Notes under the pieces: generated by a model | Seen by the model: the letters and a program-made list of their open reading frames with translations, nothing else | Told to the model about the DNA's origin: nothing | Database searches by the model: none | Origin: a virus | Taxonomy: Duplodnaviria > Caudoviricetes | DNA length: 43,931 nt | Strand: one strand, 5' to 3' | Virus record (IMG/VR): IMGVR_UViG_3300011335_000766 | Location: 1 to 43,931 of that record | Translations under genes and position numbers: made by a program | Part shown: positions 20,620-43,931 of the stretch, in pieces | How the letters are laid out: each line of letters starts with the position of its first letter | How positions within the stretch are numbered: position 1 is the first letter of the stretch

Positions 20620-20631
20620 TAGGAAACAGAT

Positions 20632-22622: not shown

Positions 22623-22639
22623 TAGGCAAACCTCCACCG

Positions 22640-22678: not shown

Positions 22679-22684
22679 ACTTCA

Positions 22685-22990
22685 ATGAATACTGACAACT
22701 TAATCGCTCACGCACGAGCCCGGTTTGATCATGTGGCCGCACGCCGTGTGTTGAAAGAAAAATACGAAGCCCGAATGTTATTCGCCTACAACGGCGGTAT
22801 GTGGCGTGCTGGACCCGAACTCTTGGTATTGTTGGCTACTGTGCCTCCGTGTGATGCAGTAGTGCTAGACTTGTATGAAACTCCTATACAGGTCAGACCC
22901 GAAGAGCTGCGCGGCATGGCCATGATGCGCTGGCAAGAACAGATGAATGCTTGGCATGTGGAACATGAACAACTGAACAAACAACGATGA
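22685..22990 (+). CDS. Hypothetical protein (101 aa; start revised from 22586)
   Basis: The ATG at 22685 follows the terminator/promoter, and the gene overlaps the next one by ATGA. The longer start in the track would run through the terminator and the previous gene. Confidence 0.75.
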   Translation: MNTDNLIAHARARFDHVAARRVLKEKYEARMLFAYNGGMWRAGPELLVLLATVPPCDAVVLDLYETPIQVRPEELRGMAMMRWQEQMNAWHVEHEQLNKQR

Positions 22991-23787
22991 CCACCGGTGC
23001 ATTGATATTTGCGTTTAACAACGAACACACCGATTATCTTGCTATAGCTGCTTGGAGTGCTGATCGCATACGCCGTCATCTTGATATTCCGGTAGCAGTG
23101 ATTACAGATTGCACAGATCCGTCAAGACTTGCTAAGTTTGATCAAGTGATCGCAGCCGATCCGGTTGCAGGTGGAACAAGATATTTTGATGACTACAAAG
23201 AAACTGTGACCTGGTATAATGCCAGTCGAACTGATGCATATAGTTTAACACCTTGGGACCAGACACTGCTGCTAGATGCCGATTATGTTGTTTGCGGCAG
23301 CGAATTAAAGACACTGTTGGACCATTCACAGGAATTTATATGCCATCGCTTGGCCTGGGATATCACTACTACAAATTATTTTGAAGGTTTAAATTATTTT
23401 GGGCATCATAAAATGCCCATGTGGTGGGCTACAGTGATGATGTTCCGTAAGTGTAACACAGCACAATATATCTTTGATTCGATGACCATGGTAAAAAACA
23501 ACTGGAAGCACTACAAAGATCTATACCATATCACCAGCAGTCAGTATCGAAACGATTTTGCACTCAGCATCGCACTGGGTATAGTAAGTGGTCACACATT
23601 AAAAGTAAACAACATACCTTGGAGGCTGGCCAGTGTATTACCCGAACATGAGATCACTCAGATTGACGACGATCGCTTTGAAATCAAATATCAAGATCAA
23701 GGCCGACTAAAAAGAATGGCATGGGGCATAGATTTTCATGCTATGGGCAAAAAACATCTAGGAGACATCATTGCCAGTGCAAAGTGA
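22987..23787 (+). CDS. Putative GT-A fold glycosyltransferase (GT8-like)
   Basis: IPVAVITD, then TPWDQTLLLDADY (DxD), then WATVMMF and RNDFALSIAL. This order parallels nucleotide-diphospho-sugar transferases. Confidence 0.6.
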   Translation: MTTGALIFAFNNEHTDYLAIAAWSADRIRRHLDIPVAVITDCTDPSRLAKFDQVIAADPVAGGTRYFDDYKETVTWYNASRTDAYSLTPWDQTLLLDADYVVCGSELKTLLDHSQEFICHRLAWDITTTNYFEGLNYFGHHKMPMWWATVMMFRKCNTAQYIFDSMTMVKNNWKHYKDLYHITSSQYRNDFALSIALGIVSGHTLKVNNIPWRLASVLPEHEITQIDDDRFEIKYQDQGRLKRMAWGIDFHAMGKKHLGDIIASAK

Positions 23788-24547
23788 ACGCGGCTATTTG
23801 ATCACAGCCATAAACACCCCTGAAGTCAACTATGTAGACTGTGCGTATAACTTGATCAAGACCATCAGGCAGTTTCATCCCGATGCCAAAATCTGTTTAT
23901 TAACTGACCAACCCAATGCTAATTGGTCTGCACTAATAGACTATTACAAAACATTTGAGTTGCCACTCAGCAGCAATCCCTACGCCAACGACTGGCAAGT
24001 GTTTGGTGCCAGTCCATTCAGGCAGACTATCAAACTGGAAGCAGACATGGTTATCGCCAGCGAGATAGATCATTGGTGGACCATGTTTGAGCATAGAGAT
24101 GTTGTGATATCCACCGGCGCTAGAGATTTTTACGATCAACCGGCTACTAGTAGATTCTATAGAAAAGTGTTTGATACAAACAACTTGCCTGATGTATACA
24201 ACGCTATCACTTACTGGAGATTGAGTCCAACTGCACAAGAGTTCTTTGGCCTGGTACGCAGGATATTTGAACACTGGAGTGAGTACAAGACCTTGCTGAA
24301 GTTTCCAGATGAGGTCGCATCCACAGATTTGGTGTATGCTATGGCAGCACAGATCATGGGTCCAGAGCGTGTAACCATGCCATTTGCAACATATCCACAA
24401 ATCGTGCATATGAAACGACATATGATCCCGACTCATTCTGAAGATTGGACAAAGGAACTCACATGGGAACTCAATCCACTAAGGATCAATACTGTGGCGC
24501 AATGGGGTGCAGTACATTATCATGTAAAGGATTGGCGCCATGAATGA
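23771..24547 (+). CDS. Putative GT-A fold glycosyltransferase, paralog of the preceding gene
   Basis: KICLLTD, SPFRQTIKLEADM (ExD variant), YNAITYW, STDLVYAMA and VHMK follow the same motif order as 22987-23787. TTG start. Confidence 0.6.
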   Translation: MPVQSERGYLITAINTPEVNYVDCAYNLIKTIRQFHPDAKICLLTDQPNANWSALIDYYKTFELPLSSNPYANDWQVFGASPFRQTIKLEADMVIASEIDHWWTMFEHRDVVISTGARDFYDQPATSRFYRKVFDTNNLPDVYNAITYWRLSPTAQEFFGLVRRIFEHWSEYKTLLKFPDEVASTDLVYAMAAQIMGPERVTMPFATYPQIVHMKRHMIPTHSEDWTKELTWELNPLRINTVAQWGAVHYHVKDWRHE

Positions 24548-24884
24548 TCAAGAATTCTTAGAATTTTGGAACAACTTCAAGTGGCCAGAAATCACCCTAG
24601 TGTATCGTAGACTATACTACGATGATGCAGGAGAGCCACTGTTTTATAGTCAAGAAGATTTGCCCGGTAAGTACATCGATGTCACTCCTGAGCAGTTTGC
24701 TCTACAGGATCGATCAGTAAAAGTCATCAATGGAAAACTTGTGCGTCGTAGAACTGCAAGGATAGCTAAACTTGTTCCTGCTGAATCGGGTACCCTTTGC
24801 CATGCCAATGATGTGACCATTGTAGTTGATGATCAGCCCGGGCAATATTGGAAGAAAAAAGAAAATGTCGTTGAAACAAATTGA
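24540..24884 (+). CDS. Hypothetical protein
   Basis: 114-aa ORF overlapping both neighbours in the coupled operon. Confidence 0.7.
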   Translation: MNDQEFLEFWNNFKWPEITLVYRRLYYDDAGEPLFYSQEDLPGKYIDVTPEQFALQDRSVKVINGKLVRRRTARIAKLVPAESGTLCHANDVTIVVDDQPGQYWKKKENVVETN

Positions 24885-25779
24885 TGTGGCAGATCTAGAC
24901 TGTGTGTATCTCAGCTATGATGAACCCAACAAAGAAGAACACTGGATCAAGATACGCAACATGGTTCCTTGGGCCACAAGAGTAGACGGAGTTAAAGGAT
25001 CAGATGCAGCACACAAAGCAGCAGCAGAGGTCAGTACCACCGAGCGTTTCATCTTGATTGATGGCGACAATCTTCCAGATCCTGAATTCTTTAACCAGAC
25101 ATTATCATTCCCTACAGAACAACATGAACAGGCGGTGTTCCGTTGGCGTGCCCGTAACCATGTGAATGGACTCATGTATGGCAATGGCGGATTGAGTTCC
25201 TGGACTAGGACCTATGTGCAGAACATGCACACACATGAGAACACCGACGGTCGGACTGAAACTCAAGTAGAGTTTTGTTTTGATCCGTTGTATTGGGCCA
25301 TGCATGACTGTTATTCGACCACATACCCTAATGGATCGGCATTTCACGCTTGGCGTGCCGGATTTCGTGAAGGCGTAAAGATGTGTTTGGATCGTGGCCG
25401 TAGACCTACAGTATCCGAATTTCAAACTCGTGTACATCAACGCAATCTCGACAATCTCACTATCTGGCATAATGTAGGCGCAGATGTGGATTATGGGTAT
25501 TGGGCCATAGCCGGCGCTAGGCAGGGCACATACATGACCATGCTTACCAACTGGGATTACCTACAAGTACAAAATTTTGATGCACTGGCTGAACTATGGC
25601 AAACTGTAGAAAATGAACAGCCCGAACATGTCAGCAACAACATTGCCAACGAATTACATACACAATTAGATTTACCCATGCACATGCTTACAGTTGAAGC
25701 CAGTGATTTCTTTAAACATCATTATCGTAGCAACTGGCGCAACCGTGGTGTCATGGTCCGAGAAGTAGATGTGATCTAA
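24865..25779 (+). CDS. Putative GT-A (GT2-like) glycosyltransferase; start revised from 24826
   Basis: DCVYLSYDEPN...RVDGVKGSDAAHKAAA...RFILIDGDN (DxD)...YGNGG...AWRAGFREGVK. It is homologous to the C-terminal domain of 39598-41211. Confidence 0.6.
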   Translation: MSLKQIDVADLDCVYLSYDEPNKEEHWIKIRNMVPWATRVDGVKGSDAAHKAAAEVSTTERFILIDGDNLPDPEFFNQTLSFPTEQHEQAVFRWRARNHVNGLMYGNGGLSSWTRTYVQNMHTHENTDGRTETQVEFCFDPLYWAMHDCYSTTYPNGSAFHAWRAGFREGVKMCLDRGRRPTVSEFQTRVHQRNLDNLTIWHNVGADVDYGYWAIAGARQGTYMTMLTNWDYLQVQNFDALAELWQTVENEQPEHVSNNIANELHTQLDLPMHMLTVEASDFFKHHYRSNWRNRGVMVREVDVI

Positions 25780-25783
25780 CATT

Positions 25784-27160
25784 GTGAAAAACAAAAGTGA
25801 TTTCCAATCGTCTGCTGAGCAGATGAAAGATCAACTCGGTCCGGCATTGTGCCTGGCTAAATGGAAACAGGTCAGCTTGCACTTGCCTACAGGATTAAAT
25901 AACTCATGTTATCATCCGCCCTTGCATCCGATAGACTCAGCTGCGATTGCTGCTAATCCTGCTGCTCTGCATAACACTGCTCATAAAAAAGCCCAGCGTA
26001 AGATAATGCTACAGCAAGAACGGCCTAGTGAGTGCAGTTACTGTTGGAACATGGAAGACTTAGGCAAGCTGAGTGATCGGCATTATAGATCAGGTGAACC
26101 CTGGGCGGCGATAGATTTTGAAAAAATAAAAAACTCAACTGGAGATGAAGAAAATGTCATACCGTCGTATGTGGAAGTCAATTTCAACAATGCCTGCAAC
26201 CTTAAATGCAGCTATTGCAGCCCGCAGTTCAGCTCTAGCTGGCAACAAGAAGTTGACCGTCATGGGGCATTCCCTACTTTGGTTCCTCATAACGCTGCTG
26301 AGCATTTTAGCGGCAGCCGCAGGCCTATCCCTGCCCGTGATCACAACCCTTATGTAGAAGCGTTCTGGGCCTGGTGGCCCACGCTGTATCCTGAACTCAA
26401 GCACTTTCGCATGACCGGTGGTGAACCCTTGATGGATCGCAACACCTATCGAGTGTTTGACTATGTGTTGGAGAATCCAAAAAGCGATCTTCACTTGGCT
26501 GTGACCTCAAACTTTTCAGTAGAGCCCGAACTATCAACAAAATACTTTGACTATGTTCAACGGCTATGCAGCACTGACATCGAACACTTCATGCAGTATG
26601 TGAGTCTTGACTCGGGCATAGGACCACAAGCAGAATACATCCGGCATGGTTTGGATTTTGAAAGATTGAAAGGCAATGTAGAAACATACCTACGAGACAT
26701 TCCGTATCGTAACAGCCTCACATTTATTATCACAATGAACAATCTGTCAGTAACAGGCTTCCTACCATTGATGCAGTGGATACTAGATATGCGTCGAACT
26801 CACAGCAAGACCTACCAGCGTGTGTGGTTTGATACACCTGTGCTGAGACAACCAGCATGGCAAAGCCTACAGACCTTGCCAGAAAGTTATGCCGCAAAAC
26901 TAGAACAAGCACGAGACTTTATGTTGGCAAACTTAGAAACCGAATCTGATCCGTTTCATGGATTCAAGGACTACGAAGTGCAAAGACTTGAGCGTGACAT
27001 TGCCTGGATGCGATCGGCATCGAATACAAGCAGTCCCCAACACCTAGCCGACTTCTCGAGATTTTTCTCAGAGCATGATCGCCGCCGAGGCACCAACTTT
27101 GAAAAAACATTTCCGGAGATGATCTCCTGGTGGAAACAATGCGGTCTACATGCTAGATAA
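25784..27160 (+). CDS. Radical SAM protein with N-terminal auxiliary Fe-S (twitch/SPASM-like) region #1
   Basis: CNLKCSYC and TGGEP; N-terminal CLAKW...SCYH...CSYC; C-terminal DRRRG. GTG start. Confidence 0.88.
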   Translation: MKNKSDFQSSAEQMKDQLGPALCLAKWKQVSLHLPTGLNNSCYHPPLHPIDSAAIAANPAALHNTAHKKAQRKIMLQQERPSECSYCWNMEDLGKLSDRHYRSGEPWAAIDFEKIKNSTGDEENVIPSYVEVNFNNACNLKCSYCSPQFSSSWQQEVDRHGAFPTLVPHNAAEHFSGSRRPIPARDHNPYVEAFWAWWPTLYPELKHFRMTGGEPLMDRNTYRVFDYVLENPKSDLHLAVTSNFSVEPELSTKYFDYVQRLCSTDIEHFMQYVSLDSGIGPQAEYIRHGLDFERLKGNVETYLRDIPYRNSLTFIITMNNLSVTGFLPLMQWILDMRRTHSKTYQRVWFDTPVLRQPAWQSLQTLPESYAAKLEQARDFMLANLETESDPFHGFKDYEVQRLERDIAWMRSASNTSSPQHLADFSRFFSEHDRRRGTNFEKTFPEMISWWKQCGLHAR

Positions 27161-28256
27161 TCGACGAGTCATCTGTGACACATCTTGTGAGATCTATCCT
27201 GAAATCAAACATCTAGTAGATGATACATTTTGGGAATTTGATAATCCCCAAGAGAATTCAATCACGATATTTGCTCGGCAGACAGTAAACCGCCATTCGG
27301 TCAAGATAAAGGAATTAGCTACAGCAGGCTTCTTCTTGCCAGTATTGGCCAATCCCAGCGAAGGATCCATAGTGCTAAAACTTCAATGCCAACGCCTAGG
27401 ATTGCTGGATCTAGTCACACAAAAGAAAATGTTACTAGTAGGGTGCGGAGACATGGAACCCGAACTCAATTGTTTAGTATATGATTGCTATCTCAATCGA
27501 GTGATCGGATATGAACAAAACATCGAACAATCCGGCCGAGTGGATGAGATATACAACAAAACAAATAAACCCTACAAATTCTTGTTCTTAAATGGTCGAA
27601 CACGCCCTCATAGAAAATACATGATAGAAAAGATGCGTGATGCTAGATTACTAGAACATGCACTATGGACCAATCTAGACACCACTCCTGTATATCATCA
27701 CACATACAATACTGAGTTATTGAGTCGAGAATCTATTATACACTTGCTGCCCGATCAATACGAAGTAGAACAATATCATACAAATATCCAAAATCAATTT
27801 GAGTATTCGTTTATCAAGCACGAACTATTCAACAACCAATGGGGTGATGTATACATCCGTGCCGATCCATATATTGATACCTATTTTAGTTTAGTAACTG
27901 AAACAGTATGTGACTATCCATATAGTCTACGCAGTGAAAAAATCTACAAACCTCTTGCTATGGGTCATCCTTTTGTGGCTGTGGCCAATCGCGGTTTCTA
28001 CAGAGATTTGCATCATGCAGGATTTCAAACATACCACACTTTAATAGATGAATCATTTGATCAGATCGACAACAATCAAGACCGACTGGATAGGATAGCC
28101 ACTGTGGTTGCGGATTTGTGTGCCGGTGATTTAGATGAATTCCTGGTCGCGGCCCGGGCAATAAGTAAGTATAATCAACAACATATGAAGGACTACGGTT
28201 CCAAAATCCGTCGGGAGTTTCCTGAACGGTTTTTACAATTCCTACAACATCAATGA
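27150..28256 (+). CDS. Putative glycosyltransferase-like protein (GT10/GT47-like TEK family) #1
   Basis: FLFLNGRTRPHR...YFSLVTET...SEKIYKPLAMGHPFV...GFQT...IDESFD. The EK motif recalls the GT10 donor-binding motif. It has two paralogs at 37300-39599. Confidence 0.5.
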   Translation: MLDNRRVICDTSCEIYPEIKHLVDDTFWEFDNPQENSITIFARQTVNRHSVKIKELATAGFFLPVLANPSEGSIVLKLQCQRLGLLDLVTQKKMLLVGCGDMEPELNCLVYDCYLNRVIGYEQNIEQSGRVDEIYNKTNKPYKFLFLNGRTRPHRKYMIEKMRDARLLEHALWTNLDTTPVYHHTYNTELLSRESIIHLLPDQYEVEQYHTNIQNQFEYSFIKHELFNNQWGDVYIRADPYIDTYFSLVTETVCDYPYSLRSEKIYKPLAMGHPFVAVANRGFYRDLHHAGFQTYHTLIDESFDQIDNNQDRLDRIATVVADLCAGDLDEFLVAARAISKYNQQHMKDYGSKIRREFPERFLQFLQHQ

Positions 28257-29590
28257 CCGATTTAGAATTTAAGCAACAGGTGCTGGACACCAAGAGTGCA
28301 AGTTTTTGTGCAGCAAAATGGTATAATGCAACCATCTGGTTGGGTAGTGGCATGACCACAAGTTGCCATCACCCGCCGGCCCATTTGGTGGACATTGATA
28401 AAGTTCGGGCCAACCCTAGGCTGCTGCACAATACTGATCAGAAGAAAGAAGATCGTCGCAAGATGATTGCCGGCGAGCGTCCTGCTGGTTGTGAGTATTG
28501 TTGGAAGATCGAAGACATGGGTAGCGATGCCGTTAGTGATCGTGTATATAAGAGTAAGATTTATCCTATAGAGCTGTTAAATGAAGCACATACCAATCCA
28601 CCCGATCAAGACTTCAACCTTCGTACCTTGGAGATTGCTTTTGACCGCACTTGCCAATTTGCTTGCAGTTATTGTAATCCTGCATTCAGCAGCACTTGGG
28701 TTCGAGACATTCGTAAAAATGGACCTTATCAAGGCCTTGTGTCTGATGGCAGGAATCACTTTACTCACGATCATAGCAGCAGTCAGCTTTATAGCTTCGG
28801 TGAAACCAATCCTTATGTGGATGCGTTCTTTGCGTGGTGGGAATCGGACCTACATCGAACCCTCCAAGAACTCCGGATAACCGGCGGCGAACCTTTGATG
28901 TCGGGCGAGACTTGGAAACTGATTGACTGGTTTAAAAATAACCCGGGCCGTAGCCAAACACGCTTGGCCATCAATTCAAACTTGGGCACAGCAGTAGATC
29001 TGGATCGATTGCTTGATAGCATTGCAGGATTAGAAGTTGACTTGTATACATCCAACGAAAGTGTAGGCCTGCAAGCCGAATACATCAGAGACGGCTTGGT
29101 GTGGGATGACTGGGCCAACAATGTGGAACGCTTGTTAGACTCAGGTAAGTTCCGTGGCATACACATCATGAACACAATCAATGCATTGTGTCTGTACTCA
29201 CTGGATCAGTTCTTGGAATGCATAATGAACTGGAAAATAGAATACGGCCGTGATGCTGTGAGTTTTACTTTGAACATCCTGCGATTCCCCAGCTTCCAAT
29301 CACCCTTGATATTGCCCGACGAACTACGCACGGTATTTCGACAACGGTTAGAAGTGTGGCTTGATGCTTGGTGGGATAGTGAATTCTTGCATGAGCACGA
29401 AGTCAATCATGTTCAACGCCTGATTGATTATCTTGACATAGTCAAGACTCCACACTCAGAAGCATTTGATCGGCCCAAGTTGCTGAATGACTTCAAGCAG
29501 TTCTATACACAATATGATCAGCGTCGAGGCAAATGCTTTGATCTGGCATTTCCTGCATTAAAACCCTGGTATGACTCAATACAAATATAA
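28253..29590 (+). CDS. Radical SAM protein with N-terminal auxiliary Fe-S region #2
   Basis: CQFACSYC and TGGEP; N-terminal CAAKW...SCHH...CEYC; C-terminal DQRRG. Confidence 0.88.
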   Translation: MTDLEFKQQVLDTKSASFCAAKWYNATIWLGSGMTTSCHHPPAHLVDIDKVRANPRLLHNTDQKKEDRRKMIAGERPAGCEYCWKIEDMGSDAVSDRVYKSKIYPIELLNEAHTNPPDQDFNLRTLEIAFDRTCQFACSYCNPAFSSTWVRDIRKNGPYQGLVSDGRNHFTHDHSSSQLYSFGETNPYVDAFFAWWESDLHRTLQELRITGGEPLMSGETWKLIDWFKNNPGRSQTRLAINSNLGTAVDLDRLLDSIAGLEVDLYTSNESVGLQAEYIRDGLVWDDWANNVERLLDSGKFRGIHIMNTINALCLYSLDQFLECIMNWKIEYGRDAVSFTLNILRFPSFQSPLILPDELRTVFRQRLEVWLDAWWDSEFLHEHEVNHVQRLIDYLDIVKTPHSEAFDRPKLLNDFKQFYTQYDQRRGKCFDLAFPALKPWYDSIQI

Positions 29591-30830
29591 CAGCAGTGAT
29601 TTAGTTCAGGACATAGATCTTTCAGACCGCGAGCAATTTTTGCTCACTGAATCTAAGACCTTTTGTATCTATCCATGGATACATCTTCATGCATATCCTA
29701 CTGGTGAGGCATATCCATGCTGTCATGCGGAAATGAAATACCCGATAGGAAATTGCCGATCTAATACCTTGTCAGAGATATGGCAAGATCAGCCTATGCA
29801 AAAATTACGGTCAGACATGCTGAGTGAAACACCCAATGTGGCTTGTGGTCGTTGTTACGAACAAGAACAATCAGGATTCTTCTCAGGCCGTAAAAGCGCA
29901 AACAAGCATCACGGACATCATATCAAAAAGTTAGATAAAAATCCATTCGAGATGACCTATTGGGACATACGATTTTCAAATCTGTGCAATCTCAAATGCC
30001 GTAGTTGTGGCTATATTTTCTCCAGTCAGTGGTATCAGGATCAGGCCAAACTAGCAGGTGATGATTGGGACAAGAACCACAAGGTGCTAAACATTGCCGG
30101 GCGCACTGAAACTGATATGTGGGAGCAGCTATTACCACACTTAGATTATGTAGAACAGATATACTTTGCCGGCGGCGAACCCTTGTTAATGGAAGAGCAT
30201 TATCGAATCCTAGACGAGTTGGTTCGGCGGTCTTTGTTCCATGTTAGATTGATATACAATACAAACTTCACACATACAGATTTAAAAGGTAAAAGTGTGT
30301 TTGAGTATTGGAAACTGTTTGATAGTGTAGCAGTAGGTGCTAGTTTAGATGGTGCAAAAGATCGTGCAGAATACATACGCAAAGGAACCAAATGGCAACA
30401 GGTGGAACAAAATCGAATCGACATGCTACGCATCTGCCCAGATGTTGATTTTTACATAAGCCCTACTCTTAGTATTCTAAATGCATGGCATCTGCCGGAC
30501 TTTCATCGAAACTGGGTCGAGCGTGGATTCATTCAGGCACAAGATTTAAATGTAAACATCTTACAAGATCCTCCGCATTATCGAATTGACATCGCTCCAA
30601 TAAAATACAAACAACGACTGCGGATAAAATATCAAGAACACATAGAATGGTTACGAGATAAGGATCCACTACAGCGTGCCACAGTAGGATTTGAGTCTGC
30701 GATTAAATTCATGATGGCCACAGATAACACACAACTCATCGACACCTTCTGGCGTAAGACTCATGAACTAGATAGCATAAGAAATGAAAAATTGTTAGAT
30801 GTGATTCCGGAACTTCAGAGTTTGTTATAG
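29571..30830 (+). CDS. Radical SAM protein with N-terminal auxiliary Fe-S region #3
   Basis: CNLKCRSC, AGGEP, YNTN and ASLDG; N-terminal CIYPW...G...PCC...IGN...CGRC. Confidence 0.88.
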   Translation: MTQYKYNSSDLVQDIDLSDREQFLLTESKTFCIYPWIHLHAYPTGEAYPCCHAEMKYPIGNCRSNTLSEIWQDQPMQKLRSDMLSETPNVACGRCYEQEQSGFFSGRKSANKHHGHHIKKLDKNPFEMTYWDIRFSNLCNLKCRSCGYIFSSQWYQDQAKLAGDDWDKNHKVLNIAGRTETDMWEQLLPHLDYVEQIYFAGGEPLLMEEHYRILDELVRRSLFHVRLIYNTNFTHTDLKGKSVFEYWKLFDSVAVGASLDGAKDRAEYIRKGTKWQQVEQNRIDMLRICPDVDFYISPTLSILNAWHLPDFHRNWVERGFIQAQDLNVNILQDPPHYRIDIAPIKYKQRLRIKYQEHIEWLRDKDPLQRATVGFESAIKFMMATDNTQLIDTFWRKTHELDSIRNEKLLDVIPELQSLL

Positions 30831-30831
30831 C

Positions 30832-35844: not shown

Positions 35845-37316
35845 ACTACATAGGTATATCTGCTGGATTCCATGATGCTGCTGTAAGTGTGGTTAATCAG
35901 GCTGGTGATATATTGTTTGCTGCTCACAGCGAACGCTATAGTAAGAGAAAGCACGACAAGGATCTCTGCGAAGATCTGCTATTAGATGCTTTGAGACATA
36001 CAGATTCCGCTCGACTAGAATATCATTACTACGAGCGCCCTTGGATCAAAGCCATGCGACAACTACGCAGTGGTGAAGGGTTCTCTTGGCCGTCGTGGGA
36101 TCGACTGCTCGGGTCAACATACAACATCATGGGTAGACCCAAGATACACACTCATGGCCATCACTTGTGCCACGCAGCAGGGGGATTCCAAACCAGCTCA
36201 TTTGATGATGCCACAATTGTGGTGATAGATGCCATAGGAGAGTTTGATACTGTAACTATTTGGGATGCCTGGTATGAAAACGGCCGAGCACGATACAAGA
36301 AAGTATGGAGCCTGCGATATCCTGATTCAATCGGCTTGTTCTATTCGGCTATGACTGCCCGTGTGGGGCTAAAACCCATGGATGAAGAATACATACTCAT
36401 GGGCATGGCAGCATATGGAGAACCTGTGTATCTTGACGAGATACGGAAGCAACTGCTAGATCTATCAAACGGATTACACTTTAAAAAGAATCTACACATT
36501 GGTGTAGACGATGATTTCTTGCCCATGGCTGATCCTGCAAACATTGCCAGCACAGCACAATTTCTAGTAGAGAGCATGATACGAGATGTTCTACAAAAGG
36601 CCAGAGAGCACGGGCGTAGCCGTAATCTAGTGTATGGCGGTGGTGTGGCATTGAATTGCCTGGCCAATCGATTCTTAGGACAATACTATGAAAAAATTTG
36701 GATCATGCCTAATCCGGGGGATGCTGGCAATAGTCTCGGTGCTAGTTGTTTGGCTCATGGTGGCCGTGTTAATTGGCGAGACTGTTTTCTGGGGCATAAT
36801 ATACCCGGTGCTTACCCGGTAAACGAGATCTTGGATCATCTAGTCACAAATAAGATAGTAGGAGTGGCATCAGGGCGTGCTGAGTTCGGACCAAGAGCCC
36901 TGGGCAATCGTAGTCTATTAGCTGATCCACGAGGACATTCAATTAAGAGCCGGGTGAATGAGATCAAACGACGACAAAAGTTCCGCCCATTTGCACCTGT
37001 GATACTTGAGGAATACGCAGCAGAATACTTTTATATGCCGCCTAACTTCGATACCAGCCCATACATGCAGGTCGTGGCCGACTGCCGCAATCCAGAACTA
37101 TTTCCTGCTATCGTACATGTGGATGGCACCAGCAGAGTACAGACTGTGCCCCGAGATGGCTCGGGTATTCGACAACTGTTAGAAAAATGGTATGTTATGA
37201 CCGGATGCCCTATGCTGCTAAACACCAGTCTCAACATTCGTGGGGAGCCTATGGTCAACGATCGAAAGGATGCAGATCGATTCCAACGGTGCTATCAAGT
37301 CAAGGTGTGTAGTTGA
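35841..37316 (+). CDS. O-carbamoyltransferase, NodU/CmcH/TobZ family
   Basis: GISAGFHDAA, ERYS, HHLCHAA, IDAIGE, GGVALNC, GDAG, EFGPRALGNRS, RPFAP, HVDGTSRVQTV and LNTSLN..GEP. Confidence 0.93.
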   Translation: MNYIGISAGFHDAAVSVVNQAGDILFAAHSERYSKRKHDKDLCEDLLLDALRHTDSARLEYHYYERPWIKAMRQLRSGEGFSWPSWDRLLGSTYNIMGRPKIHTHGHHLCHAAGGFQTSSFDDATIVVIDAIGEFDTVTIWDAWYENGRARYKKVWSLRYPDSIGLFYSAMTARVGLKPMDEEYILMGMAAYGEPVYLDEIRKQLLDLSNGLHFKKNLHIGVDDDFLPMADPANIASTAQFLVESMIRDVLQKAREHGRSRNLVYGGGVALNCLANRFLGQYYEKIWIMPNPGDAGNSLGASCLAHGGRVNWRDCFLGHNIPGAYPVNEILDHLVTNKIVGVASGRAEFGPRALGNRSLLADPRGHSIKSRVNEIKRRQKFRPFAPVILEEYAAEYFYMPPNFDTSPYMQVVADCRNPELFPAIVHVDGTSRVQTVPRDGSGIRQLLEKWYVMTGCPMLLNTSLNIRGEPMVNDRKDADRFQRCYQVKVCS

Positions 37317-38487
37317 TACGATCCACAACCACTTGCAGTCTGTGAGCCATGCCTGCGCGAAATACCTGAGCATTATGCTGTATCTCGGGTGCAAGATCCT
37401 GATATAGACGATGTAAATTATCCTGCCCGGATTGTATCAATGACTTGGTAAGATCTAGCACAGCTTCAAATCGATCTTGATTATTACTGTTTGAATCATA
37501 ACTTTCATCTATACAACGACCAAAAGTCTGATATCCAAGGTCGCGCAGGTGTCGGAGATGATCTGCAGAACTTACCATTACAAAAAATTGATTGTTGAAT
37601 ATGGGTTTGAATGTTTTTTCTGTGATAAATTGCCCACCAGAGTCGTCCACATCGATCATGGTCTCTAACACAATGTTGAAATAACTGTCAGTATACAAGT
37701 CGGCCATGTTCTGATTGTAGGTATTATGAGCGCGGGTATCTAGATCATCTACACGGAATGGGCCAGCGGCAATAAACTGATCTACCCTGGATTGGCATTT
37801 AGCGAGATAACTGTTTCTCAATGCACATCCATAATAATCGTCCTCCCCGCCTAACAAGTGTTGAGTGTAACTGAAGTAACCTTGTTTGTGTAAGCCATGA
37901 CTCCATAGATCGCTCATAAACACCTTGCGCCAAAGTTTATCTATCCTGCACAGTCCGGTATAGGCGCGTGATCTTGGATTGAGATGATATTGAGCATTTG
38001 AATTTCTATCCACTGTACGCCAATACATGAATTCTAGTTCAGGCCAATACACTGAGTTCGGATATTGATCAGCAGAAGAATTGCCTGAAATCAACCATGT
38101 CATTTCTTTGTCTATGCCATGCTGTTCGCAAAGCGTGTTTAATCGATCTCGGATGCGCCCAGGATGATCGCCTTCATGATAGGTAAACACCAGTTTCATT
38201 TCTTTTGATTTTATTTTAGCCATGGCATCGGTGCTGATCTGAGAGATATAGTCTTGACCGAAATCAAACCATCCTGATACCATTGGGTACCATGCGCCAC
38301 AAGGAGCATCTTTGGTTGATACAACTTGATTGGGGATTTTGCAATCTCCGAGATAGTATATAATGCGAGGAAAATCCAATCTATATCCATCCATGTCATC
38401 AATTTGATCATGCAAGTGTACAGGTATACCGTTGGGCATGGGCCTCCTAGTAATCGGATGCCGATAGTCAACTGCTATGTAAATCAT
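37300..38487 (-). CDS. Putative glycosyltransferase-like protein (TEK family) #2
   Basis: YFNIVLET...FITEKTFKPIFNNQFFV...LRDLGYQTF...IDESYD; paralog of 27150-28256. Confidence 0.5.
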   Translation of the reverse strand: MIYIAVDYRHPITRRPMPNGIPVHLHDQIDDMDGYRLDFPRIIYYLGDCKIPNQVVSTKDAPCGAWYPMVSGWFDFGQDYISQISTDAMAKIKSKEMKLVFTYHEGDHPGRIRDRLNTLCEQHGIDKEMTWLISGNSSADQYPNSVYWPELEFMYWRTVDRNSNAQYHLNPRSRAYTGLCRIDKLWRKVFMSDLWSHGLHKQGYFSYTQHLLGGEDDYYGCALRNSYLAKCQSRVDQFIAAGPFRVDDLDTRAHNTYNQNMADLYTDSYFNIVLETMIDVDDSGGQFITEKTFKPIFNNQFFVMVSSADHLRHLRDLGYQTFGRCIDESYDSNSNNQDRFEAVLDLTKSLIQSGQDNLHRLYQDLAPEIQHNAQVFRAGMAHRLQVVVDRINYTP

Positions 38488-39599
38488 TTAGATAAATGTG
38501 TCTTGATTGATTCTAACATGTCGGTAAGTTCGGCCCATAGCACCGATTCAAACCCGCCTCGGTAGAACCAATTCCAGTTGTGTTCAATCACAGGCCAGCA
38601 GGCTTGGAATAGTTCTTGTTTCTCTTGTTTAGAGAGATCATTTAGTTTTTTTAACACAGCAGCAACCTTTTCGGCTCTGCTCAAGTCGTTAGTGTCAAGA
38701 TCATAACTCTCATCCCAAAAATCTCCAAATGTTTGGAATCCATAACTACGCAAGTATGCAAGACTGCCTGCTGTGGCCGACAGTACAAATGGCATACCCA
38801 ATGCGATGGGTTTAAATGATTTTTCGGTAAGTTGTAACCTACGCCCGGTGTACACAGTTTCTGTAACATGATAAACTAGACTTTCGGCACATGGATCAAA
38901 TTGATCCAACCAACAACTGCTCATCCGAGGAGTATTTTCTCCGGGAAATAGTCTAGGTAGATCTATTTTGTTAATCACATCAACGATGTCAAGATGTTGA
39001 TCTTTATAATTTTGGGCAATTTCACCAATGGAAGTATTCTCTACTGGGCACACAGCACTGGCACTGATCCAATTATCCATAAGACCTAGTCGAGCAAAGT
39101 GATACAACATTAACACTCGATGTTGTCGCAACCCACCAATGATCCGATTGGCACTAAAGAAGGTTTTTTGGATCTTCCTCTCAGTCCAAGGTGTGATTTG
39201 AAAAGTTCGATCATATCCGCGATACCAATCTAATGCAGCCCATCCATGGAAAAAATAATAAAAAGGTTGCAAGTTTCTCTGTTTACATATATAATCTATG
39301 TTGGTACTGTTGGTTTCGCTAACTACTATGACTCCTGTTTTTCTAACATGAGGCCTGAATCTTTGTAGGTTGCTATGATCTAACCGATCCAAGGTTGCTC
39401 GATGAAGATTTGGGATCAAAGGTTCTTGGTCAAAGAAATATATAAAACTTTTTTCTTTATCGTCAACTGATTTATAATTTTGAAGACTGTCTGGGTTGCT
39501 AGATCCAAAAGGGTCATGATAAACCATTCCGGTATGCGGCAAATTTTTTCTTATCCAGGGCAAGAATGTATTTTCGTAGAGCTCATCTATCCTGATCAT
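38484..39599 (-). CDS. Putative glycosyltransferase-like protein (TEK family) #3
   Basis: FFSANR...RQHR...HVTET...LTEKSFKPIALGMPFV...LRSYGFQTF...WDESYD; ATGA overlap with 37300-38487. Confidence 0.5.
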   Translation of the reverse strand: MIRIDELYENTFLPWIRKNLPHTGMVYHDPFGSSNPDSLQNYKSVDDKEKSFIYFFDQEPLIPNLHRATLDRLDHSNLQRFRPHVRKTGVIVVSETNSTNIDYICKQRNLQPFYYFFHGWAALDWYRGYDRTFQITPWTERKIQKTFFSANRIIGGLRQHRVLMLYHFARLGLMDNWISASAVCPVENTSIGEIAQNYKDQHLDIVDVINKIDLPRLFPGENTPRMSSCWLDQFDPCAESLVYHVTETVYTGRRLQLTEKSFKPIALGMPFVLSATAGSLAYLRSYGFQTFGDFWDESYDLDTNDLSRAEKVAAVLKKLNDLSKQEKQELFQACWPVIEHNWNWFYRGGFESVLWAELTDMLESIKTHLSK

Positions 39600-41211
39600 G
39601 TTTGATATATTTTATATTGGAACCAAACCAAATCTGTTTGTACACGAGCAACAGGTCGAATCTATTGAGCAAGCACATCAACGGTCACGCACAAGATTCT
39701 TTTGGATGGTCTCATATTTAGTGGATTATACAGGGTTCGATTTCCTTTATGAACCGCCACCTTGGCAATCACATCAACGCCACACATGGCCTAGCCAATG
39801 GCAAGAGGATTCCGGCACATATCTTGTTCCTACTGCGGGCTACACAGACACAAACTATCACTCCGCTCCACAACTACCAAGAACTTTGGCCACAGCCAAG
39901 TACGAGATCGATCACATGGACGGTGCAGCAGGACAGATACCTGGTGTTGCACGACGAGTAAGATACTTTGACAACTACAGAGACACACTAATCCGATTGG
40001 CTAAGAGCATTGGCACAGAACATGAGTTTGTGTGGGTATGCTCTAGCATCTGCGATTATACCAACTTTGACTTCTCGTGGCATCCTAGTCATTGGCAATA
40101 CAATCTACTTCATGTGTTTGCCAGCGATGAACAAAAGTTTGGAGACACATTCTTCATGCATGTGCCTAGTTTTGCAGCAAAGGCAGAAACTGTGGAGTTG
40201 TTGGACTGGTATGATTGTAACTTTGTTGATATCTCAGTTCCTCGTAGACCTATGCCTGTGATACAACACGACTTAGATAGCCATGTTGATGCAGTAAAAA
40301 CAATGACTTGGAAAGGGCCCCTGGCGTTGTTTGTGACCAATACTAACCCTTCCATATCTCAACCCGCTGTGAATCTTTGGAGAGCAGAAACTAAAACTTT
40401 GATACCATTAGATCCGGGTGCCAATGCAGTGATAGTTCCGCAGTCTGTGGTGCCATATATAAAAACACAATTGTATGATTATGCCTATATAGACAAAACA
40501 AAAAGATCTACACAACCTGCACAGTTACAAGATGTGATTTTTATATCCTATGATGAACCCGAAGCAGAGATTAACTGGAAAAAACTACAAGACAAATGTA
40601 CAAGGGCTAAACGGGTTCATGGTGTACAAGGTATGGAAAACGCATTAGCAGCAGCAGCGGAACTGAGTTCCACTCCGTGGTATTTTTGTGTGTTTGGAAA
40701 AACTGAATTGCATCCTGATTTTGACTTTACTTTCCAGCCTGACTACTTTCAACAGCCAAAGCACTACATTTTTTACAGTGAGAATCGCGTGAACAAGTTA
40801 GTGTATGGAGAGATGGCTGTTATCATGTATAATTGCAATCTCATACTTGATAATCAAAATCAAGAGTTTGGTCTTGATTACACATTGAGCTTCCCCCATG
40901 AAGTCATACCCATCATCAGCACATATGGGAACTTCAACACCAGCCCATATCATACTTGGAGAACAGCATTTAGAGAAGTCAGCAAACTGTACGACATGCA
41001 GGAAAAATCGCCATCCGTTGAAACTGAATATCGTATCAACATATGGGAAACCGTGGCCCAAGGTGATTATGCAGAGTGGGCTCTAACCGGGGCCAAGGAT
41101 GGAAGAGAATTCTATCAAAAATACAAAAATGACTTTGCTTATAGGAAAAATAGCTTCAACTGGCAATGGTTAAGAAACTATTTTTCAACTCTCCACGGAG
41201 AGTTCAATTGA
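39598..41211 (+). CDS. Multidomain protein of tandem degenerate GT-A-like units
   Basis: Repeated units FFWMVS..VDYTGFDFLYEP, FVWVCS..CDYTNFDFSWHP and WYFCVF....LHPDFDFTFQP. The C-terminal unit (DVIFISYDEP...RVHGVQG...TWRTAFREVSK) is homologous to 24865-25779. Confidence 0.6.
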   Translation: MFDIFYIGTKPNLFVHEQQVESIEQAHQRSRTRFFWMVSYLVDYTGFDFLYEPPPWQSHQRHTWPSQWQEDSGTYLVPTAGYTDTNYHSAPQLPRTLATAKYEIDHMDGAAGQIPGVARRVRYFDNYRDTLIRLAKSIGTEHEFVWVCSSICDYTNFDFSWHPSHWQYNLLHVFASDEQKFGDTFFMHVPSFAAKAETVELLDWYDCNFVDISVPRRPMPVIQHDLDSHVDAVKTMTWKGPLALFVTNTNPSISQPAVNLWRAETKTLIPLDPGANAVIVPQSVVPYIKTQLYDYAYIDKTKRSTQPAQLQDVIFISYDEPEAEINWKKLQDKCTRAKRVHGVQGMENALAAAAELSSTPWYFCVFGKTELHPDFDFTFQPDYFQQPKHYIFYSENRVNKLVYGEMAVIMYNCNLILDNQNQEFGLDYTLSFPHEVIPIISTYGNFNTSPYHTWRTAFREVSKLYDMQEKSPSVETEYRINIWETVAQGDYAEWALTGAKDGREFYQKYKNDFAYRKNSFNWQWLRNYFSTLHGEFN

Positions 41212-42298
41212 AAAAATCAAGCACAGCCTGTGCGACTGTATCTACATCCCCGAGATTGAGTTGTGCATGAACTGGAAGACTGATACATCTAGCAGATAGT
41301 CGTTCGCTGTTGGGCAGGCTTACTTTGGGCATGTTTCGATACACAGGCTGTTGATGCATAGCCAAGGGAAATTGGATACCTGCTTGAATTCCTTGATCAT
41401 ACAGAGATTCATAAAGATCATCTCTACGGTCAGATTGGATCACAAATTGATTGTAAACATGACTGCTGACTTGGTTTGATTGTGGTAACTGTATTTTATC
41501 ACAATGTTTGAGTAATTCCATATACCGTTGAGCATGTTCGACTCTTTTCTGATTCCATGTATCTAAAAAATCAAATTTGGCCGACAGTATGGCTGCTTGC
41601 ATAGAATCAAGTCGTTCATTCCATCCCACGATTTCATGTAGATATTTTTCTCTACGGCCGTGATCTCGCAGCATTTTGATGTCAGCGATAAGTTTTTTCT
41701 TGCCAGTAACCGCGCCAGCATCGCCCATGGCTCCTAAGTTTTTTCCTGGATAAAAACTAAAACAAGTTAGATCGGCTTGATTTCCGATCGGTTGCCCTTT
41801 GTATCGGCACCCTGCACTTTGTGCAGCATCTTGGATTAGCGGAATACCGGGTGCTAGGGCTCGCAATCTTTGTAGAGCAATTGTTTGCCCGTAAAGATCA
41901 ACAAAAATGATTGCCCGGGTTTTGTCCGTGATAGCCAGTTTGATCTGATCTAGATCTATAGTGTAATATTGATCAATGTCGACAAAGCGAGGTATAGCAC
42001 CAATCTGGCTAACACATTCAGCTGTGCTAATGAAACTCATGCCGGGAACCACAACTTCATCGCCAGGTTTCACACCAACTGCTAACAAAGACAATGTCAG
42101 CGCACTGGTGCCACTGCTTACTCCTGCACAATCTTCGGCACGAGTGTATTGTTTCCATTTGTCTTCAAAATTCTTAACTTCTATACCACCAATGAACGAA
42201 CTGTTATCAATGCATCGTTTGATCGCAGCATCTATAGATGTTTTAGCCTCTGTGTATTCCTGAAACAAATTTGCGTATGGTATAGTTATTGTCTGCAT
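41204..42298 (-). CDS. DegT/DnrJ/EryC1/StrS family PLP-dependent sugar aminotransferase; start revised from 42319
   Basis: SSGTSAL, GDEVVVP..SFISTA, VDLYGQ, QDAAQSAG, CFSFYPGKNLGAMGDAG (PLP lysine), G.NERLD..QAA and ISLP. Confidence 0.93.
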   Translation of the reverse strand: MQTITIPYANLFQEYTEAKTSIDAAIKRCIDNSSFIGGIEVKNFEDKWKQYTRAEDCAGVSSGTSALTLSLLAVGVKPGDEVVVPGMSFISTAECVSQIGAIPRFVDIDQYYTIDLDQIKLAITDKTRAIIFVDLYGQTIALQRLRALAPGIPLIQDAAQSAGCRYKGQPIGNQADLTCFSFYPGKNLGAMGDAGAVTGKKKLIADIKMLRDHGRREKYLHEIVGWNERLDSMQAAILSAKFDFLDTWNQKRVEHAQRYMELLKHCDKIQLPQSNQVSSHVYNQFVIQSDRRDDLYESLYDQGIQAGIQFPLAMHQQPVYRNMPKVSLPNSERLSARCISLPVHAQLNLGDVDTVAQAVLDFFN

Positions 42299-43671
42299 GT
42301 GACTGGTCCTTGATTCCACGGTATACCAAACTTTTCGTCATCTTGAGCCTGATTGATCAATCTACTTACTACATGATCAAACGCATCTAAATATCCAACA
42401 TCAGGTGGCATTGGTCTTATTGTTTTCTCTGATTGTACAAAATCTCGAACTACCTGTTCTACGCTACTATCGTTGATATTTCCGATGATGTATCTTTCAG
42501 CACCAGGACGATCTAAAAAGCCACTTTCGTGATACACATAAACATCGCCTTTGACATCAACTGCTACAGCAACTTGCGGAAAGCTATGTGGTACCATCTC
42601 CTTCCAAGAGATCATTTTCAATGCGCCGGAGTTCCTTCCATGCACCAGTGATTCTAATGCATATCCAAAATCCCAATGTGTAGTAGGCCACTTGTTTTGT
42701 TTGAAATCTTTGATGCGGTCAAAAATATCAACAAGCTGTGCTCGCTCTTCATCACTGACTATGCGAACATTCTGACTGAAATCTTCTCTCAAAGTTACAA
42801 AGTCAACAGGACGAGTAGTATGACTGTTGATATGATCAATGATATCAATCAGCTTCAATACATCTTTAGAGGACCCAGGAAGGATGATCCAGTTTACTCC
42901 CACACGCACATCAGTGGTCGAATTGATGTAGTCAATGATGTTTTGTATGATGCCATCAAAACTTTCTGAATGGCGTGTTACTTTAAACGCACTATCTGCA
43001 TCCACTCCGTATAAACTGAATCTAACTGCGTAAAGATCTTTCATACCAGGGTTTTTCTCTACATACTTAGGGGTCATCATGTAACCATTGGTGTAGAGCT
43101 GCATTTTGTAACCACGCTGTTTGCCGTAAGTGATGATATCACCTAGATACCGATTAGTCAACGGTTCAAGCCCACCACTGATCCTAAATCTATCATCCCA
43201 GAACTGATCAGTCTTGGGATCTTGATCGATGATCTGTTTGAATACATCAAACCCATGTTGTTCAAACTTCCGATCGTATTTGGCAACAGGATTACGCCCA
43301 CAAAAATTACAATAGAACATACAGCTCATACCGGTGTATAACCCAATGCGGTTTGGATACATGTAATGATGATCTATAGCAGCATGTAACGATCCGTTGT
43401 CTAACAATGGGCGGATGGTATTGGTCCAGTACTTGGTACCTTCGCCACGGAGTAAGATATGATTCTGTGCTCGGTTATCTTGTCGTAAGGCATGTGATAA
43501 CTCGCGCAATTGATCCGCAGAAATGTTCAGTGTGGATGCTATTTTTCTTTGAGTCACAAAAGGATCATTGGCTAACATTTCGCACACTTGCATGGACACT
43601 GAGTCCAAGTGAGAAATATCAGAATCCTGATCAACAGTAACGGAACTATGGGTGTAACCTAATCTTGACAT
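42286..43671 (-). CDS. desII: DesII-like radical SAM enzyme (NDP-4-amino-4,6-dideoxyhexose ammonia-lyase family); start revised from 43683
   Basis: GLYTGMSCMFYCNFC, SGGLEPLTN, LYTN, RFSLYG, ILPG, DFVTLREDFS, DFGYAL.SL, PQVAVAVD..GDVY.Y.E.GF...GA.RYI.G and VVRDFV all match, in order, what I recall of Streptomyces DesII. Confidence 0.82.
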   Translation of the reverse strand: MSRLGYTHSSVTVDQDSDISHLDSVSMQVCEMLANDPFVTQRKIASTLNISADQLRELSHALRQDNRAQNHILLRGEGTKYWTNTIRPLLDNGSLHAAIDHHYMYPNRIGLYTGMSCMFYCNFCGRNPVAKYDRKFEQHGFDVFKQIIDQDPKTDQFWDDRFRISGGLEPLTNRYLGDIITYGKQRGYKMQLYTNGYMMTPKYVEKNPGMKDLYAVRFSLYGVDADSAFKVTRHSESFDGIIQNIIDYINSTTDVRVGVNWIILPGSSKDVLKLIDIIDHINSHTTRPVDFVTLREDFSQNVRIVSDEERAQLVDIFDRIKDFKQNKWPTTHWDFGYALESLVHGRNSGALKMISWKEMVPHSFPQVAVAVDVKGDVYVYHESGFLDRPGAERYIIGNINDSSVEQVVRDFVQSEKTIRPMPPDVGYLDAFDHVVSRLINQAQDDEKFGIPWNQGPVTCRQ

Positions 43672-43673
43672 AT

Positions 43674-43931
43674 TTAAACACAATCTAACAACGAATCAAT
43701 GATGTAATCAACTTCAAGATAAGTGAGTTCAGGGTAAAGAGGTAGTGTGAGGCAGCGGCGTGCTAGACTGCTTGCTGGGCTCAGTATGCTGGGTCCTTGG
43801 AGATGTTGATAAGCAGGCAGTTCATGCAGTGGATCACGATAGTGTATCTTTGTCTCGATACCTCGGTCGGCCAGTTTTTGCTGTAGTAGATCACGGTCAT
43901 CCACATCAATCACAAACTTGTGGAAGCTGTG
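43674..43931 (-). CDS. C-terminal part of a second DegT-family aminotransferase (5' truncated by window)
   Basis: The frame is open to the window edge: HSFHKFVIDVDDRDLLQQKLADRGIETKIHY..PLH..PAY...LTLPLYPELT, a typical DegT C-terminus. Confidence 0.85.
   Translation of the reverse strand, partial: HSFHKFVIDVDDRDLLQQKLADRGIETKIHYRDPLHELPAYQHLQGPSILSPASSLARRCLTLPLYPELTYLEVDYIIDSLLDCV

Follow-up and report, generated by a model that had tools for sequence, protein, structure and literature searches.

We analysed IMG/VR record IMGVR_UViG_3300011335_000766 (Duplodnaviria; Caudoviricetes), a 43,931-nucleotide stretch of viral DNA, hereafter the window, whose positions 22,685 to 43,931 carry a block of sugar-building and tailoring genes. 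The window is the entire virus record (43.9 kb), and the phage's own genome is represented by this 44-kb fragment. Pfam and PHROGs searches place baseplate wedge proteins, a 4684-residue structural protein and fibre-like proteins in its left half; the wedge shares 32-36% identity with its counterparts in jumbo myophages that have been cultured, including SCTP-2, Atu_ph07 and large E. coli phages, and the window is a contig of an uncultured T4-like jumbo myophage. Riverine and freshwater sequencing runs hold near-identical DNA, with no RNA runs among the listed holders, and no tRNA genes were found in the window. Five relatives of 337-364 kb (95-100% complete) supply near-complete genomes; one of them, G006, encodes a Gp23 capsid protein, a T4 portal and a late sigma factor. 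Conservation was scored in the best 80 of at least 600 IMG/VR stretches (about 940 estimated) that match one core gene, a sample that leans to close relatives and in which loci are cut at 21 kb, and gene order was compared with that of the cultured phage RsoM2USA. The genes of the block are listed here, with GT for glycosyltransferase, SAM for S-adenosylmethionine, ORF for open reading frame, and bit scores on the N-twitch radical SAM family NF033640.

22685..22990, plus strand: 101-residue conserved protein of no family (71/80 loci; RsoM2USA ORF354; no Pfam match).
22987..23787, plus strand: GT8/glycogenin-like GT-A candidate 1, with a DAD motif (76/80 loci; RsoM2USA ORF353).
23771..24547, plus strand: GT8/glycogenin-like GT-A candidate 2, with an EAD motif, a paralogue of 22987 (77/80 loci; RsoM2USA ORF352).
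24540..24884, plus strand: 114-residue conserved protein of no family (76/80 loci; no Pfam match).
24865..25779, plus strand: GT-A-like candidate with an invariant DGD motif (78/80 loci; RsoM2USA ORF350 at 36%).
25784..27160, plus strand: N-twitch radical SAM 1, core (316 bits; 79/80 loci; RsoM2USA ORF349).
27150..28256, plus strand: member 1 of the putative GT-B family, a paralogue of 37300 and 38484 (67/80 loci).
28253..29590, plus strand: N-twitch radical SAM 2, core (291 bits; the query gene for the locus search).
29571..30830, plus strand: N-twitch radical SAM 3, core (386 bits; 80/80 loci).
30832..32232, plus strand: N-twitch radical SAM 4, accessory (195 bits; 9/80 loci; GC content at third codon positions 0.31, the lowest of the genes measured).
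32196..33440, plus strand: N-twitch radical SAM 5, core (331 bits; 79/80 loci).
33427..34725, plus strand: N-twitch radical SAM 6, core (280 bits; 74/80 loci).
34709..35746, plus strand: 345-residue conserved protein (66/80 loci; confident model, no clear fold match).
35743..35844, plus strand: 33-residue basic peptide, coupled to the carbamoyltransferase gene and filling the sole larger gap.
35841..37316, plus strand: NodU/TobZ-type O-carbamoyltransferase (PF16861/PF02543).
37300..38487, minus strand: member 2 of the putative GT-B family.
38484..39599, minus strand: member 3 of the putative GT-B family, modelled at a predicted local distance difference test score (pLDDT) of 92.
39598..41211, plus strand: multi-domain GT-A-like protein facing the amino-sugar operon, its C-terminal domain without DxD.
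41204..42319, minus strand: DegT aminotransferase B (DegT-B), a predicted C3-aminotransferase (PF01041).
42286..43671 (ORF from 43683), minus strand: DesII-like radical SAM protein (8HZV, E 5e-72).
43674..43931, minus strand: 3' end of DegT aminotransferase A (DegT-A), cut by the contig end (whole gene in relative L082).

These genes reproduce the counts of the first-pass annotation of this DNA, which had listed about seven GT-like genes of three types, seven radical SAM enzymes, a carbamoyltransferase and two PLP sugar aminotransferases. Both aminotransferases are DegT enzymes, and the seven GT-like genes form three paralogue families (22987/23771; 24865/39598; 27150/37300/38484). The start given there is correct, with the ATG at 22685 lying six bases past a conserved -10 box, and the statement that gaps are of a few bases holds for all but one, the others being at most 4 bp or overlaps and the exception, of 94 bp, being occupied by a previously unreported 33-codon ORF (35743-35844). 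The block does continue past the window: in L082, a relative at 93% identity, it extends about 3.5 kb further (DegT, short-chain dehydrogenase/reductase (SDR), cytidylyltransferase-like gene) and ends at thyX. It is more than a single operon, since four genes lie on the minus strand, as does the cut DegT, and its unknowns include, besides GT-like genes, 22685, 24540 and 34709. For 34709, a Foldseek search gave no match and Atlas was blank; its best matches in VIA, to helical bundles at Z 9.0 and to cyclophilin-like barrels at about 8.5 (split barrel plus helical bundle), lie within the chance range.

The synteny survey indicates that the block is a conserved unit. Thirteen families stand in constant order in 80 of 80 loci, each family being present in 63-80 of them, so the concern raised earlier that the genes might not co-occur across genomes did not materialize. 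The genes inserted between them are variable and include SGNH/DUF6071, methyltransferase, epimerase, extra radical SAM, GT25 and halogenase genes (of the variable families, 64 were listed and 58 searched against Pfam). RsoM2USA carries a minimal core in the same front-end order (ORF355-348), right behind a fibre-like gene, and is the sole match among 50,697 phage records to three cassette queries. Distant contigs at 20-60% identity also keep the front-end order behind the fibre gene, and the front-end GT pair matched 1,049 protein clusters (50% identity) at E 1e-10. RsoM2USA has a second site (L001:19159-24735), 90 kb from its core, with an N-twitch radical SAM gene, three DUF6071 genes and a carbamoyltransferase gene. 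The same slot in Sinorhizobium phage Phosso (L145:15245-22369) holds four radical SAM genes and a 306-residue protein ending in repeated CHxSC units, possibly a radical SAM modification of a structural protein; these genes proved unrelated to the cassette.

A contrary reading is that the block came from a host or from chimeric assembly and does nothing for the phage, and 37 loci in GTDB do match the 24865 family. However, 12 of the 15 full-length GTDB matches at 38% or more stand beside phage structural genes (phage contigs binned into metagenome-assembled genomes), with two others on 1.5-4 kb contigs; a contig of run X11 spans 22253-23111, the border between structural genes and cassette, with no differences; X1 and X7 contigs bridge the 39598/DegT and DegT/DesII junctions; and iron-sulphur motifs are intact in 409 of 409 full-length core and accessory radical SAM copies checked. 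Since the GTDB neighbours are phage-structural, the run contigs bridge the junctions and the order is kept in cultured RsoM2USA, we conclude that a host-derived chimera, against which the first-pass annotation had cautioned, is unlikely, and we regard a host-derived or chimeric block of no use to the phage as extremely improbable. Jumbo-phage contigs also occur within GTDB genomes of Haliscomenobacter, Marinimicrobia, Rickettsiales and others (L107-L121), where they are likely mis-binned and give no host assignment.

The GT-like genes required assignment by other means than family searches, in which all seven had no Pfam match at E 0.01 and no GT family in PHROGs or NCBIfam (23771 matched one unnamed PHROG). 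A model of 38484, built from a 50-row alignment, matches GT-B enzymes, with a best Foldseek E of 1e-3 and top VIA rows at Z 8-11.5 over 240-290 aligned residues, among them T4 BGT at Z 11.5 (root-mean-square deviation 4.8, 266 aligned), AGT at 10.5 and, at rank 4, an alpha-1,3-fucosyltransferase at 9.8. The family carries a TEK motif that we take to resemble that of GT10, and PF00852 (GT10) matched 0 of 50 members at E 1. We accordingly model the 38484 family as having a GT-B fold, and for this one family the earlier doubt that the GT-like ORFs might lack GT folds falls away. For the other two families the evidence weakly suggests a GT-A assignment: with 22987/23771, in which D99 is invariant, 19 of 20 rows of a PDB profile search are glycogenins, weak at E 0.03-0.3, and in the 24865/39598 family DGD is invariant in 24865 and missing from the 39598 C-terminal domain, with an Atlas lead to PF00535 in 21% of a cluster at 0.87. 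PDB profile searches with the 24865 and GT-B families gave nothing useful, and a relation between the two GT-A families was rejected (profile comparison, 17% probability). Distant relatives of 24865 in actinobacteria (L128, L131, L138) lie in GT clusters with GT4/GT1-like and GT2 genes, two of them with an FkbM methyltransferase gene. Given a modelled GT fold, fixed co-occurrence and phage-borne location, the data support the proposal that the phage encodes a block for building and tailoring sugars, and we conclude that the block is a real, conserved, phage-borne sugar pathway.

The structural matches to T4 BGT and AGT raise the question of whether the target is nucleic acid, that is, whether phage DNA (or RNA) is hypermodified with a carbamoylated or glycosylated base. 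That reading gains from the early-type promoter described below, from phage carbamoyltransferases that act on 5-hydroxymethylcytosine (5hmC; PMC8670742), from a GT-B paralogue between helicase and primase and FolE, QueD and QueE-like genes in G006 (L104:9966-15799, in a genome where TGT and DpdA were not found), and from thyX or thyA at the cassette border. Against it, 0 of 5 near-complete relatives carry PF00303 (ThyA-fold), PF00145 (C5-methylase), PF01702 (TGT) or DpdA, with positive controls, and Tet_JBP was likewise found in 0 of 5 in a search without a positive control. The single thyA examined has Asn in its PFN motif, the canonical state, whereas DNA carbamoylation is tied to a ThyA homologue with Asp177, and GT-flanked carbamoyltransferases also occur on unmodified contigs (PMC8670742). 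Restriction sites, moreover, are still being purged: ACGT occurs once in the window against 66 expected, near relatives keeping it (36 vs. 44 in L002 and 37 vs. 47); AGCT occurs 0 times against 38-44 expected in three other loci; and 7 of 60 loci are nearly without one 4-bp palindrome, the palindromes purged in other members being AGCT, CATG or AATT. Since shielded DNA would not be expected to keep purging sites, site loss counts against DNA shielding. We therefore disfavour DNA hypermodification, one of the uses offered by the first-pass annotation, and consider it very doubtful. The loss of ACGT is in itself a recent, lineage-specific restriction signature that may help to assign hosts.

The second group of enzymes that defines the block is the radical SAM set. 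Six genes score 195-386 bits on NF033640 (N_Twi_rSAM, cut-off 170), a family label whose entry gives no reaction, and all six have CxxxCxxC and an N-terminal Cys-rich domain. By these features they belong to the N-terminal-twitch family, and sugar chemistry is their predicted role. The twitch domain is thus N-terminal, unlike that of BtrN (as we take its domain layout to be), with which they had previously been compared; the likeness to aminoglycoside and macrolide pathways stands for DesII, DegT and the carbamoyltransferase and does not extend to the six twitch enzymes. The 33-residue peptide ORF precedes 49 of 63 carbamoyltransferase genes examined, including one of RsoM2USA, and 18 of its 33 alignment columns are invariant. 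A predicted complex of peptide and carbamoyltransferase scored 0.58, against 0.00 for the best control, with a contact agreement of at least 45% and a partner pLDDT of at least 54. Of 157 solved complexes 116 attained the mark, as did 2 of 215 mismatches; scores of 0.60 or below accounted for 18 of the 157 and for both mismatches, so that the result is weak. A likeness of the peptide to SxtK/DUF5989 was considered and dropped, there being no Pfam match at E 10.

The remaining likeness to antibiotic-sugar enzymes would also suit a free aminoglycoside-like or acylated sugar metabolite, acting in anti-defence, against competitors or as a signal. DesII and the TobZ/NovN-like carbamoyltransferase speak for such a product, as do the flavin halogenase and AMP-binding enzymes of some cassettes, and the same idea has been raised for a cyanophage cluster (PMC7824862). 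However, a set of seven GT-like genes, with a GT-A repeat protein of variable length, would sooner suggest a polymer or conjugate, the window's cassette holds no exporter, and the link to tail genes is fixed; we consider a free metabolite improbable. In G006 (e.g. L093:16143, L095:9249, L092:11633, L101:14760-17469) the cassette interior contains an AMP-binding enzyme plus halogenase, and the genome further encodes a NifU/IscU scaffold, GDP-mannose 4,6-dehydratase and UDP-glucose dehydrogenase, seven GT-B family copies, several TctC proteins and B12 radical SAM genes.

At the right end of the window, the DesII relative aligns to 8HZV across 418 residues and scores 351 bits on TIGR04426, below the equivalog cut-off of 450. 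Its C121/125/128, E386 and D433 (numbered from 43683) correspond to DesII C141/145/148, E408 and D456, and GGLE is kept; loss of D456 abolishes DesII activity, and DesII also oxidises TDP-quinovose (PMC11434129). Its close viral relatives are scarce (6 loci; 407 proteins overall). The best PDB matches of DegT-B are 7b0d, 2oga, 8e75, QdtB and WbpE (E 1e-79 to 1e-64), of which we take 2oga to be DesV and QdtB and WbpE to act at C3; those of DegT-A are the same set, weakly matched, and DesI is not the closest. The upstream SDR has SSS where TDE, presumably the 4,6-dehydratase motif, is expected, and the acidic residues of 4,6-dehydratases are absent; L161 has DesII and the downstream DegT without the upstream DegT. 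Because of these two observations a full desosamine route is not established from the gene content, and the dehydratase step could come from host RmlB. Among 58 distinct loci with a facing 39598 orthologue, a sample drawn with DegT queries, the converging operon consists of the SDR plus DegT-A alone in 48; of the SDR plus DegT-A, DesII and DegT-B in 4, the window included; of the SDR plus a DegT-B-like gene with a Gfo/Idh/MocA oxidoreductase, presumably a 3-dehydrogenase, in 4; and of the SDR plus DesII and DegT-B without DegT-A in 2, one having another DegT. On this gene content, DesII may provide the 3-keto-forming step by deamination or dehydrogenation, and true deamination, leading to a 3-amino-4-deoxy sugar, is plausible for the window's module type only.

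The GT-A-like protein that faces this operon varies with it. Orthologues of 39598 range from 438 to 1784 residues in steps of about 66, and their Trp/Pro-rich repeat of about 66 residues gives 0-21 hidden Markov model matches per protein (58 distinct orthologues; e.g. L208, L156, L154). Within the window's module type the last 232 residues share 79-92% identity; against phages with other modules the figures are 57-58% and 45-46%, although the first domains of those phages still agree at 74-96%. In a FastTree of the C-terminal domain the 48 DegT-A-only rows form one branch (96) and the 4 rows with DesII and two DegT genes form another (99), whereas in a FastTree of the middle domain the module types are scattered; a long-branch warning applies to L163. 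The comparison indicates that the C-terminal domain of 39598 tracks the module, not the phage, and this fits a donor-specific C-terminal domain.

The head of the block bears on when its genes are expressed.

22639..22678, plus strand: intrinsic-terminator-like hairpin (22639-22663) overlapping a sigma70-type promoter (TAGACT-17-TATAAT, 22650-22678).

A sigma70-type site of at least 9/12 is present in 61 of 62 distinct loci, with a spacer of 17 in 58 of 62 and an ATG 5-6 bases on in 49, while eleven internal cassette genes have such sites in 0-14 of 55-71 loci; conservation of the hairpin was judged by eye, with no count. TAAATA, which we take to resemble a T4 late promoter, stands before the fibre gene (19222 orthologue) in 38 of 38 loci and before the cassette head in 2 of 62; it also precedes radical SAM 2 in 37 of 69 loci, which may reflect coding. 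G006 has sigma70-type sites before recA, primase and clpB as well. Sigma70-like sites are not enriched across the window (32 vs. 45.8 in shuffles), so it is on conservation that the promoter call depends. From the terminator-like hairpin, the conserved sigma70-type promoter and the rarity of TAAATA there, we take the left operon to be transcribed apart from the late genes, probably at an early or middle stage; we reject co-transcription with the late tail operon, which the hairpin and early-type promoter do not support.

An early-type promoter would suit enzymes that work from within the cytoplasm to remodel the envelope of the infected host, whether lipopolysaccharide (LPS) core, O-antigen or capsule, against superinfection or grazing during a long latency. 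Consistent with this are the accessory GT25, FkbM methyltransferase, SGNH-type and epimerase genes, the hypervariability of accessory content, the basic 33-residue peptide, which could tether to the membrane, the 270-min latent period of RsoM2USA (PMC8504454), and the published reading of GT islands in pelagimyophages and cyanophages, for which the accessible text presents no experimental test (PMC7029224, PMC7824862). However, the features of Gtr-type serotype conversion, a GtrA flippase and a membrane transferase, were not found: GtrA is present in 0 of 5 near-complete relatives (control positive in 8 of 14), and the window's cassette has no membrane protein, no 19-residue window in its proteins being strongly hydrophobic (maximum 1.76). 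The front end, too, is invariant across different hosts and holds a fixed position behind the fibre gene. We consider envelope remodelling rather unlikely. Together with a virion glycan it remains a candidate among the uses first offered.

The explanation that we prefer, while giving it somewhat less than even odds, is that the block is an assembly line for a heavily tailored glycan on virion proteins, for which the neighbouring structural genes would be the source of acceptors.

18554..22622, plus strand: last four structural genes (baseplate-associated, fibre-like, and two Ser/Thr-rich paralogues at 27% and 32% Ser+Thr), putative acceptors.

Several observations favour it: structural neighbours reach 27-32% Ser+Thr; the constancy of the front end across different hosts would be easier to explain with an acceptor made by the phage than with the host's variable O-antigen; and the same slot in XacN1 (L146:10043-20243) holds a PF11397 GlcNAc transferase, a GT9 and a carbamoyltransferase. 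PF11397 is, we assume, a protein-acceptor family. That slot also holds an HtrL/YibB protein, and only its carbamoyltransferase is related to the cassette. The gene order kept in 80 of 80 loci, the lack of GtrA and of strongly hydrophobic windows, the case against DNA and the branching of the 39598 C-terminal domain by module type likewise count for a virion glycan. Capsid-protein glycans in mycobacteriophage Che8 are a precedent (as cited in PMC11256854 and PMC12619734). Further upstream, the 4684-residue structural protein of the virion (4344-18398) matches FG-GAP and, weakly, CBM5/12.

According to this explanation, the converging operon at the right end would turn a nucleotide-sugar into an amino sugar: the DesII relative would either deaminate the DegT-A product or act as a dehydrogenase, giving a 3-keto sugar in both cases, and DegT-B would aminate C3. 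The facing repeat-bearing GT-A-like protein would transfer, or cap with, this amino sugar, and its variable repeats may determine how far it reaches or how long the chain grows. Priming and extension would fall to the fixed front end (two GT8-like proteins, one GT-A-like protein and two small partners), working on a conserved acceptor for which Ser/Thr-rich tail or fibre proteins are the likeliest candidates; the GT-B enzymes would add branches; the five core N-twitch radical SAM enzymes and the carbamoyltransferase would oxidise, epimerise, deoxygenate and carbamoylate; and accessory methyl-, SGNH-type, halogenase and epimerase genes would diversify the pattern among phages. The whole line would be cytoplasmic and would start early from its own predicted sigma70-type promoter. 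Genes, order, families, motifs and domain incongruence are read directly from the DNA; reactions, product and acceptor are predicted from them.

Several points weigh against a virion glycan. Only 1 of 93 cultured records with the 18554 structural gene is matched in GT searches, so this virion type can do without the cassette. The terminator-like hairpin and early-type promoter separate the cassette from the late structural operon, which weakens the argument from position, a virion target still being possible. The link between C-terminal domain and module is explicable by hitch-hiking of adjacent genes, in a sample drawn with DegT queries; the top structural matches of the GT-B model are the DNA glucosyltransferases T4 BGT and AGT, 1-2 Z above the rest; and the GT-A assignments come from motifs and profile matches at E 0.03-0.3. 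The virion acceptor is one that we infer, and the fibre-like ORF355 of RsoM2USA has just 20% Ser+Thr. Host sugars carried on lipids at the inner face of the membrane are also within reach of soluble GTs. Similar islands have been read as host O-chain modification (PMC7029224, PMC7824862). The accessible text on RsoM2USA mentions no glycosylated band; ORF358 is annotated there, ORF356, 359 and 361 are in virions, and "glycos" appears once, for another ORF (PMC8504454).

If a virion glycan is confirmed, virion glycosylation, so far a matter of a few mycobacteriophages, would reach an abundant lineage of jumbo phages, the N-twitch radical SAM family would gain its first substrate class, and a DesII enzyme would be placed beyond antibiotic synthesis; if host-envelope remodelling is confirmed instead, a long-assumed role of myophage glyco-islands would be tested. 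The cassette has a carrier in culture, and the four genes of the amino-sugar module can be assayed in vitro. We offer, as a speculation less likely to be right than wrong by a wide measure, a fuller picture in which a widespread aquatic myophage lineage of 340-360 kb armours its virion with a natural-product-grade glycan, built with a ruler-like transferase, made up of 66-residue GT fragments, that would set the chain, with a swappable DesII or dehydrogenase module that would select the amino-sugar cap, and with five dedicated N-twitch radical SAM enzymes carrying out new sugar chemistry, so that the phage surface would vary in a serotype-like manner.

The block is of a known kind, a glyco-island beside tail genes; we found no printed description of its fixed radical SAM core, of its swappable DesII module or of its repeat transferase, and no published account of the cassette turned up in a search that covered mainly the main text of open-access papers. 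With the T4 BGT/AGT and 5hmC carbamoyltransferase systems (PMC8670742) it shares the GT-B fold of the model and PF02543/PF16861, and it differs in having no hydroxymethylase partner and in its purged sites. With virion glycosylation in Che8 it shares phage-encoded soluble GTs, and Che8 serves as a model for the acceptor; Che8, however, is a siphophage with few GTs, and no sequence link to the cassette was found, three cassette queries matching no mycobacteriophage GT homologue (the GT-B family lay outside that search) and a bridge through an actinobacterial homologue giving no match. We know of no radical SAM, aminotransferase or carbamoyl steps in Che8. The moraphages are the subject of PMC12619734.

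The amino-sugar module resembles the TDP-desosamine DesI/DesII/DesV set of Streptomyces venezuelae (8HZV, TIGR04426, PMC11434129) in having a DesII homologue flanked by two DegT genes, the downstream one close to 2oga. It departs from that set in its 351 bits against 450, in having no adjacent N-methyltransferase, in an SDR without dehydratase acids, and in a DegT-A not closest to DesI; some phages, moreover, have DesII and the downstream DegT only, and others a Gfo/Idh/MocA oxidoreductase beside a similar DegT. The nearest systems are the pelagimyophage host recognition cluster (PMC7029224), in which radical SAM cassettes are mentioned briefly, and the LPS-like cluster of cyanophage P-SSM2 (PMC7824862), which likewise set GT and sugar genes beside tail fibres and are variable. 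Published descriptions call those islands non-syntenic or sporadic. The present block, by contrast, keeps 13 genes in one order in 80 of 80 loci, its GTs match nothing in Pfam, and five N-twitch radical SAM paralogues form the core.

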